Position numbers and translations under genes: made by a program. A stretch of DNA of 36,003 bases, taken from Eledone cirrhosa. Its lineage: Eukaryota. This document shows positions 27,869 to 30,435 of the stretch, one piece after another. Each line of letters opens with the position of its first letter. The first letter of the stretch is position 1. Location: positions 1-36,003 of the forward strand of contig CAXHJY010001720.1 of NCBI GenBank assembly GCA_964016885.1, in the 5' to 3' direction. The notes below the pieces were generated by a model. The model searched no databases. It was not told the DNA's origin and worked only from the letters and a program-made list of their open reading frames with translations.

Positions 27869-28357
27869 TAGAATTTCTGAAATATTTTACATAATTTTAC
27901 AGTTCCATTAATGATTTGCAGTTGCGACTTCCAAACTAACCGTTCTCGTTCTGGTTCTGTGAAGCCCAGCTTCTCAAGATTTGTACTGAAGCAGTAACAT
28001 ATCCCAGAGCAACAATAATCACAATTACAAATCTAAAGGTATAGTCAGGCTGGAGTATCTGCAGATTCCTCATTAGATCAACATAAATGTTTTCCTTTTC
28101 GCTGATATTTAGCATTTTATTGCCATCGGTTCAGCAGCTGGTTTCCACTACTATGCATGCCTTCTTTTCTCTATCTCATATCACTATATCTGGCGTATTA
28201 TGTTTGTATTTTATTGGGGTTTTGACTGGAAGATTCCATTAGTACTCTTTCATATTATGTATATACCTTCCATACCACTGTAAATATATTATCCTCAGGA
28301 CTACCCTTTCTATGGACTGCATTGTATAGTGTTCTAGCTTCTACATTATACATCGTA
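27869..28357 (-). mobile_element. Decayed R4/Dong-clade non-LTR retrotransposon, restriction-enzyme-like (PD-D/ExK) endonuclease domain
   Basis: Minus translation: YNVEARTLYNAV...KEY*WNLPVKTPIKYKHNTPDIVI*DREKKACIVVETSC*TD...SEKENIYVDLMRNLQILQPDYTFRFVIVIIVALGYV...NLEKLGF. This matches the RHN..A / HNRPD / EK..KY / IIIGALG pattern, with in-frame stops and frameshifts. Confidence 0.82.
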
Positions 28358-28384
28358 GATGTGTATGTATGTATGTATGTATGT

Positions 28385-28700
28385 AATGTCAGGTCGCTCG
28401 CTAGTGCCATTGGTAACATGTAACCCAGTACAACCTGTTTCATTGTCGGGTCGTCGGTGACTAAACCGGCAACCTCACCAAGCTTGCTTGGTGAGGAGGG
28501 TGATATTTGGAAACCCTGTAGGATGAAATACAAAACCCGGCAAAGGGGCGGAGGAACTCAGCAGAGTTAACGGCTATCCAAAGAGCAATTTTTTTTTTTT
28601 CACCTGGGAGTGAAAGGCCCTCAGTTGTTGTCACAACACCTTTCTAAGATAGGGAAATTCTGAAAAAGAACCTGCAGCTTCGGAAGCATCCGATGATGTT
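28385..28700 (+). mobile_element. GC-richer structured segment, possibly a LINE (RTE-like) 5' UTR
   Basis: Abrupt GC rise after (TGTA)n. Hairpins cctcaccaagc-tt-gcttggtgagg (28473-28496) and aactc-agca-gagtt. Family assignment is from recollection only. Confidence 0.3.
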
Positions 28701-28710
28701 GACCAGTTCT

Positions 28711-28820
28711 CCTTTTCGGGTAATGTTTTCGATGTTTCCTTTTCGGGTAATGTTTTAGATGTTTCCTTTTCGGGTAATGTTTTAGATATTTCCTTTTCGG
28801 GTAATGTTTTCGATGTTTCC
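28711..28820. repeat. 27-bp minisatellite, 4 copies
   Basis: ccttttcgggtaatgtttt[c/a]gat[g/a]ttt at 28711, 28738, 28765 and 28792. Confidence 0.95.
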
Positions 28821-29080
28821 CCACTTAAAAAACCTTCAAAGCACAGGCATTGCTTGTTCAGGATATGATACAGGTTCGTGTGTCTAGCCGTAGCCTAAAG
28901 GTGCACCAAACTCTGTAATTTGACAAGCGATTGGAATCCTCTTAGCAGAGTTTGCAGCCATCAAGTATGTATGTATATTTGTATGCATGTTTGTACATTT
29001 ATGTAACATTCAGTCTCCATTTCCAATTTTGTCTATCTCTGTTTCCGATTTCTCTTTCTCCTTCCATTTATTTTATGTAC

Positions 29081-29082
<2 letters not shown>

Positions 29083-29164
<82 letters not shown>

Positions 29165-29170
29165 TATATA
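29083..29170. repeat. (TA)n microsatellite
   Basis: Direct observation. Confidence 0.96.
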
Positions 29171-29837
29171 CAAAGATCGGAATTAAAGTATTCCGCAGTT
29201 CACAGTAAAAAATTATTACATGTGAGTTTAACCGTTACTGTATGGAGAACAATACCTACAGGTTAGCAATTAAATAGAAAAAAAAACTAAGTCAGAATCA
29301 AATCTCTAAAGTAGAGTTTTAAATTACTAACCTTATAACTATAAGCTTGCTGATACGAATTTAGTTCGTTTCACCACAGAAATGTGAAAATTATCTGTTC
29401 TTATTACTGTGAACTGCGGAATACTTTAATTCCGATCTTTGTATATTTAACGAGCTCCAGATTGTTGAGCTAAGAAATTCAAATGGTTGGGCTGCCCTCT
29501 CTAGCATTTCCCCCCAATTCATGAGAGCCGTTATTTGATGCAAATAACACGTGATTTCGCCCTACTCTGGACAGCGTGTTTATTAGCTTTCTCTCTATCC
29601 ATTAGGCTAGATGTGTCGTGAACAGTACCCATACTTGCTGACTGAGGATCCTATGGGCTGTTATACCGCACATTTCTGTGGTGAAACGAACTAAATCCCT
29701 ATCAGCAAGCTTATAGTTAATTTAAAACTCTACTTCATAGATTTGATTCTGACTTAGTTTTTTTCTATTTAATTGCTAACCTGTAGGTATTGTTCTCCAT
29801 AGAGTAACGGTTAAACTCGCATGTAATAGTTTTTTAC
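29166..29837. mobile_element. Hammerhead-containing non-autonomous retroelement (Penelope pLTR / retrozyme-like) with inverted, circularly permuted partial copy
   Basis: Layout A-B-A'-C-B': 29166-29208 is the reverse complement of 29404-29446, and ~29205-29386 is the reverse complement of ~29669-29837 with several substitutions and one ~11-bp indel. Confidence 0.7.
29634..29709 (+). ncRNA. Type I hammerhead ribozyme (stem III mutated in this copy)
   Basis: Perfect 8-bp stem I CTTGCTGA/TCAGCAAG, core CTGAGGA (29642-29648), GAAAC (29683-29687). The inverted copy at 29346-29372 keeps intact stem III ACGAA-ctaaa-TTCGT and the GTA triplet. Confidence 0.75.
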
Positions 29838-29859
29838 ACACTTCTCACTGTGTAACACA

Positions 29860-29946
29860 CAGGACCCCGTCGGCTGAGCTCCGATCGTTTAGACAAAGTT
29901 CAGATCAAGCTGTGGAAACCGCCGGAGCTCAGCTGTCGGGATCCTG
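29860..29946. repeat. GC-rich inverted repeat, 24-bp arms
   Basis: caggaccccgtcggctgagctccg / cggagctcagctgtcgggatcctg, 3 differences (one is a G-U pair on +). Confidence 0.88.
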
Positions 29947-30039
29947 ACTCTTTTTCGTATTACCCACTCTACTACCCTAAGTATCGAGTACTCTGGTGCG
30001 TTATGGTCCACCTGGTTCCTTACCACACCTTCTTTGTTG

Positions 30040-30061
<22 letters not shown>

Positions 30062-30070
<9 letters not shown>

Positions 30071-30176
30071 GACGTAAAATAAGAAAATTTTAAAAATTAA
30101 AATTTAACTTACTAAATTTTAGTAAATAAGTTAACTTTTAATTTTTAAAATTTTCTTATTTTACGTCTTTCATATA
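30062..30176. repeat. AT-rich near-perfect palindrome, 41-bp perfect outer arms
   Basis: 30062-30102 is the reverse complement of 30136-30176; the inner part also pairs (ttaactta/taagttaa). Confidence 0.93.
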
Positions 30177-30280
30177 ATTGTTCTGCATCCCCCTGCATAG
30201 AACCACAAAGGTACTAAGACATAACATATATATTTGCTAGCATGGGTATACATCTATATACATATGTTGGTAGATATACT

Positions 30281-30435
<155 letters not shown>

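Follow-up and report, generated by a model that had tools for sequence, protein, structure and literature searches.

A decayed copy of a protein-free, 540-nt hammerhead retrozyme family in Eledone cirrhosa, probably mobilized in trans by Penelope elements

In the accessible text of two reports, metazoan non-LTR retrozymes are non-coding, low-GC repeats with a type I hammerhead ribozyme, which occur as monomers and dimers and co-exist with Penelope elements (PLEs) (Cervera and de la Pena 2020, PMC7229834; Li, Clavereau and Pollet 2026, 10.64898/2026.07.22.740005). The former describes circles of 170 to 400 nt and calls PLEs a "strong candidate" for copying animal retrozymes. The latter gives a size range of 51 to 972 bp and backs the link between retrozymes and PLEs by homology and co-occurrence. 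The hallmarks of PLEs listed in the available parts of Craig et al. (PMC8557442) are partial tandems, an inverted 5'-truncated copy, a 30- to 40-bp tail that is often one-ended, and (TA)n targets. According to the accessible text of Frangieh et al. (PMC11167929), a PLE enzyme introduces nicks into both strands and extends them; it starts from two sites inside the RNA, which delimit the tail. Non-autonomous PLE derivatives are also described: the Chlamys elements, e.g., MRC1, form pLTRs and head-to-tail multimers and resemble their autonomous family at the 3' end, in a clade without canonical hammerheads (PMC8557442, in the part available). Since the accessible portions of these four sources (PMC7229834, 10.64898/2026.07.22.740005, PMC8557442, and PMC11167929) already cover non-LTR retrozymes and their origin from PLEs, as well as inverted arms and a one-sided tail, the locus analyzed here does not represent the novel system proposed in a preliminary description of its sequence.

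The window, i.e., the whole stretch of DNA that was analyzed, comprises 36,003 nt of Eledone cirrhosa (contig CAXHJY010001720.1, forward strand). The left end of the insertion lies in a (TA)n target tract (29083-29167). It is followed by an inverted, 5'-truncated arm on the minus strand (29163-29386), in which monomer positions 268-448 are joined to positions 1-46 and which terminates at the longer of two alternative 3' ends, named B. The forward arm on the plus strand (~29385 to 29860) consists of monomer positions ~503-518, an 18-nt deletion, and then positions 1-471. Thus, the unit does not coincide with the stretch of ~430 nt (29404-29837) to which it had been assigned, and the monomer of the family measures 531 to 548 nt. 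Inverted and forward copies are 89% identical over 182 nt and 96% identical over 49 nt.

The type I hammerhead with an 8-bp stem I that had been noticed in the forward arm was found at 29634-29709, stem I being formed by 29634-29641 with 29702-29709; CUGAGGA is located at 29642-29648 and GAAA at 29683-29686. This forward copy is damaged, with two substitutions breaking stem III and an altered triplet. In the inverted arm, the 5' half of the hammerhead is absent, and only the 3' half, comprising GAAA, stem III, the GUA triplet, and the 3' strand of stem I (29346-29372, minus strand), is intact and matches the search pattern exactly. Rfam detected no hammerhead in the window at E ≤ 1. The unit was also correctly described as devoid of a coding ORF: the eight ATG ORFs of at least 40 aa that overlap 28300-30300 are 41 to 99 aa long and are mainly microsatellite translations.

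Besides the 18-nt deletion where the forward arm begins, the locus has lost 11 nt after the ribozyme and a further piece at the end of the forward arm. The near-duplicate locus L033 retains the shorter end, named A, and the TA tract; judged by this comparison, the end A and TA tail of the forward arm were removed by a later deletion. The window locus was scored as an A+B insertion. A twin of the window's right flank, 94% identical over 4.5 kb, is found on contig C14 (L033/L112); the window contig may therefore represent another haplotype or a duplicated region. An AT-rich palindrome of 110 nt lies between TA tracts at 30064-30174 and is also present at the twin locus.

A search of the own genome with the unit returned 1277 first-look candidates, the best 40 of which were scored and showed 88 to 93% identity. 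Loci were collected by four queries, and 112 were counted after 22 had been dropped (19 re-fetches, overlaps, or the twin of the window and three near-identical duplicates). Monomer coordinates follow the 539-nt monomer of locus L004; between successive cut sites, 531 to 548 nt were measured at four loci. Full copies are 84 to 97% alike across subfamilies. The longest array found, at locus L155, contains 2.3 units, and most loci contain fewer than 1.7. Two complete hammerhead motifs are located 548 nt apart in L155, and its two full units, which have rare variants in common, show differences at 32 of 522 sites. The longest frame of this tandem is 58 codons in sense and 140 in antisense orientation, and no ORF was found inside any sampled retrozyme insertion. 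A full self-join was present at 93 of the 112 loci, and thus the circularly permuted copies expected from the preliminary description do occur across the family, in the form of partial tandems.

The sequence features by which non-LTR retrozymes are recognized were all found: a type I hammerhead, tandem units including the double hammerhead of L155, lack of coding capacity, and a GC content below 50% (36% in the unit). Judged by them, the repeats represent a new non-LTR retrozyme family, dispersed, protein-free, and ~540 nt in length. Monomers and dimers and the co-existence with PLEs are shared with the described retrozymes. The 540-nt unit falls within the range given in the accessible part of 10.64898/2026.07.22.740005 and is longer than the circles of PMC7229834. 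A further difference is that the family consists almost wholly of dispersed partial tandems, with no long arrays found. Another retrozyme-like dimer with a 459-nt unit, unrelated in sequence to the 540-nt family, was seen in TA at L093:5510-6419; it contains two hammerheads, in which the base of stem II is unpaired and CC/GG is present. Furthermore, AT-rich spots of the retrozyme have repeatedly received insertions of a SINE-like, ATT-tailed element (L013, L019, L027, L151; 24290-24400 in the window). Co-mobilization of this piece in the four loci was considered and rejected: since sites, lengths, and orientations differ, the pieces are separate later insertions.

The exact pattern of stem III plus triplet was matched 473 times genome-wide and 0 times in the control, with at least 10 loop variants among the 100 matches listed. 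Subfamily variants (≥8%) were present in 13% of all columns, in 0 of the 34 columns of core and stems, and in 14 of the 37 other hammerhead columns, among them core position 7 and loop III, which vary freely (Fisher P = 3e-5 for core and stems versus other hammerhead columns, in a post hoc test on related copies). Sets chosen without the pattern of the 3' half showed the same conservation. In an alignment of 69 of the 86 available rows, those left out being mostly damaged or redundant, pairing was preserved in 97% of cells for stem I and in 99% for stem III. Of 66 rows, 32 have UA and 26 have CG as the outer pair of stem I, a covariation that may go back to a single inherited event. The base of stem II was unpaired in 61 of 66 rows; according to the accessible literature, helix II of axolotl HHR_Amex2 likewise has mismatched U-U at its base. 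All core and stem features were intact in 62 of 100 spanning arms, a proportion inflated by selection.

According to this structural model, the RNA is predicted to cleave itself at GUA. In seven copies, the hammerhead fold was compared with an alternative rod: it was less stable by 4.5 to 9.6 kcal/mol in five copies and by 2.4 kcal/mol in one, and equally stable in one. Because the rod was preferred in six of the seven copies, monomer activity may be weak. Cleavage of dimers was seen in one of nine cases in the available text of Li et al. (10.64898/2026.07.22.740005).

The 3' ends of the family lie at two places, A (~491) and B (~41-46 of the next unit), both of which are TTTGTAT-like. The tail between them has a median length of 93 nt (n = 52; range, 82 to 105). 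TA repeats are abutted by 152 of the 168 classified ends, and within these tracts target duplications are unreadable. Arms are arranged head to head at 75 of the 112 loci and directly at 35, and two loci are complex. Among the 60 head-to-head loci that could be scored for end pairs (15 of 75 were left out because of a truncated or interrupted end), 58 were A+B, two were B+B, and none was A+A. When the tail-selected set was omitted, A+B pairing was still observed in 35 of 36 cases (P = 5e-10). Outer arms converged at one locus. Contigs of three runs (one sample, kind unknown) that map to L004 show loose ends running into TA at the same two places; they list no joint for the window deletion or for splicing, which is uninformative.

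This arrangement was compared with the pLTR and tail of EN+ PLEs, as described in the available parts of PMC8557442, PMC11167929, and Arkhipova et al. 2013 (PMC3846280). Alike are the 5' truncation, the partial tandems, the inverted arm, the optional one-ended tail, the (TA)n targets, and the position of the hammerhead upstream of the ends. In contrast to EN+ PLEs, the retrozyme has no ORF and its tail measures about 89-93 nt instead of 30-40, the long tail being the only deviation from the PLE footprint. Moreover, stem III of the retrozyme hammerhead has 5 bp, whereas the hammerheads found in GIY-YIG loci of this genome mostly have a short palindromic helix III. Since ends, arms, and TA targets match the published PLE footprint, the retrozyme family works like a PLE substrate, and it is very probably a non-autonomous, PLE-mobilized retrozyme.

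In the available texts of PMC7229834 and 10.64898/2026.07.22.740005, retrozymes are not said to have inverted arms, ends that are fixed and paired, or TA targets. A literature search, with subscription journals, Repbase, and bioRxiv supplements outside its scope, found no paired-end PLE footprint on a retrozyme, and the accessible part of PMC13282606 makes no mention of ribozymes. The 540-nt family presents the footprint of a PLE enzyme on a protein-free retrozyme. It offers rules that can be counted, namely, A+B ends in 58 of 60 loci, no stop at the cut site, and a conserved catalytic core, and so provides a modest, testable handle on retrozyme movement.

Overall, we consider it likely that the window contains a decayed copy of a 540-nt retrozyme family which is mobilized by PLEs in trans and probably copied from an RNA circle. 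Transcription of a locus carrying two hammerheads would be followed by cleavage at both GUA sites, releasing a monomer that a host ligase would circularize. Each strand of a (TA)n tract would be nicked by the RT/GIY-YIG endonuclease of a PLE, with reverse transcription starting at the internal sites A and B, one per strand. The two cDNAs would extend back across the ribozyme site to variable end points and be joined at short microhomologies, giving direct or head-to-head insertions. The window copy would later have lost several small pieces, one loss creating the junction noticed first. Plausible, if somewhat doubtful, is the stricter version of this scheme, in which a single 540-nt circle is read from both nicked strands at once, at sites ~90 nt apart, and cleavage and ligation are obligatory. 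If true, it would make the insertions direct genomic evidence for the proposed path by which a retrozyme circle, via a PLE enzyme, reaches a new locus; the tail involved would exceed the published length more than twofold.

As to the template, the cut site was read through at 96 of the 112 loci and twice at five, counts which, like those of intact copies, are inflated because most loci were chosen by hammerhead-containing queries. The interval 290-306 contained 5 of 188 5' ends, approximately as expected from an even spread. The 5' ends were checked for accumulation at the cut site, and none was seen; four junctions near the cut are imprecise, and an exact start at it was observed in 0 of 8 inspected junctions. 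We infer that cut and re-joined RNA is the simplest reading, since the site shows conservation suited to cleavage and copying nevertheless does not stop there. At diagnostic sites, inverted arms agreed in 941 of 1083 cases (87%) and tandem arms in 468 of 511 (92%), versus ~55% expected; by this measure, the arms of one locus share one source sequence. Circular folds of four real monomers had z-scores of -2.4 to -4.5 (30 shuffles each). A rise in truncation after one unit length was discarded as evidence because the queries selected long copies. Taken together, we lean towards circular RNA as the main template.

The same family and the same PLE enzyme could also act on an uncleaved, linear partial-tandem transcript, or the RT could jump between linear monomers, with the hammerhead merely trimming transcripts or acting late. 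We regard this as possible, though rather improbable on balance. In the accessible text of Frangieh et al. (PMC11167929), hammerhead cleavage is dispensable, hammerhead mutants leave insertion in vitro unaffected, and unprocessed RNA is the main substrate in vitro. A linear template would also suit the absence of arrays longer than 2.3 units and the alternative fold, which sequesters the core in most copies, and the concordance of arms is equally expected from a homogeneous tandem source. However, such a template offers no explanation for why the catalytic core is conserved, and trimming should stack 5' ends at the cut, where none of the eight inspected junctions begins. Moreover, repeated 5' truncation would erode tandems unless they were regenerated.

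Both the preferred circular template and the linear one presuppose a family without its own enzyme. Open reading frames for RT plus GIY-YIG are present in the genome, with 10,596 GIY-YIG and 65,951 Hydra-type first-look candidates. The preliminary description had envisaged an autonomous PLE sharing the sequence of the unit; a profile of 19 copies detected none in a small sample of 109 coding PLE loci (80 GIY-YIG and 29 of one Hydra-type family). Its best E-value was 0.12 in the first 40 GIY-YIG loci, again a small sample, and nothing was detected at E ≤ 5 in 40 further GIY-YIG loci or in the 29 Hydra-type loci. Unlike the Chlamys elements, the 540-nt family thus has no resemblance to a coding family found in these 109 loci. 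Given how small this sample is compared with the number of candidates, and that every feature of the ends is a PLE pLTR feature, the copies could be the 5'-truncated pLTR ends of an unsampled autonomous PLE. This is improbable: copies that are long enough close on themselves (the 93 loci with a full self-join), up to 2.3 units and with no ORF between, and even L155 has a longest sense frame of just 58 codons. An ORF for RT plus GIY-YIG between pLTRs was absent from every sampled insertion, and the PLE protein fragments seen near units (11 loci) are nested insertions located outside the unit.

Two observations were made on coding PLEs of this genome. At the 3' ends of L092 and L097, a terminal repeat of a coding PLE contains a hammerhead-like motif, recognized by eye, with a non-canonical 5' core strand. 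The loci L224-L252 represent a young, very abundant family of PLEs that ends in TA and bears motifs of the Hydra clade (DKT, CxCX5C); the 65,951 first-look candidates were obtained for this family.

The junction that first drew attention to the locus, at which the inverted copy reads from the end of the supposed unit (29837) directly into its start (29404), is indeed present in the sequence (29205-29208, minus strand). In other family copies, these two points are ~92-100 nt apart. The shortened join has one exact match in the 3.0-Gb genome, the window itself, and is private to one of the 112 loci. It is located ~150 nt from the ribozyme site. Because of this single match, the 4-nt TTAC microhomology at the junction, and the other small deletions at the locus, it is best explained by local decay and not by the joining of a circle. 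A local deletion of about 93 nt is almost certain on this sequence comparison, with an RT skip or an assembly error as a possible alternative. The preliminary reading of a ~430-nt circular or tandem RNA, with its end-to-start join kept in the inverted copy, agrees with the join in the window and is nevertheless refuted at the genome level and extremely unlikely: it has the wrong size for a unit of ~540 nt, has one genome match, lies on a 4-nt microhomology at a locus with three other small deletions, and would delete end A and half of the tail, both of which the family uses. The flagged locus is a decayed copy, and its junction says nothing about the template.

An intron-like stretch with donor-, branch-, and acceptor-like words directly follows the ribozyme (L004:1822-1898; monomer ~322-398). 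It was missing from 0 of 120 spanning arms, a retention which is uninformative because PLEs retain introns. On the plus strand of the window, 29538-29553 contains two motifs that we liken, by name, to the octamer and the E-box. This stretch is a possible candidate for an internal promoter; it is part of a 38-column run free of subfamily variants, which by a rough estimate is not significant alone. Newt satellite 2 is reported to use an snRNA-type promoter, as cited in the available text of PMC2220036.

The forward arm is bordered by an unrelated mini-element (29860-30045, plus strand), which is separate from the retrozyme. It belongs to a second non-coding, TA-targeted family with 2839 first-look candidates, the best 40 of which were scored, and consists of a ~105-nt hairpin and a ~80-nt tail, repeating the short-end/long-end layout of the retrozyme within a 190-nt element. 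Farther upstream in the window, a 16-kb C/A-rich array with spacings of 9 to 15 nt and an almost G-free plus strand extends over 5700-22100; it may represent a satellite or else a coding exon rich in Thr and Asn.
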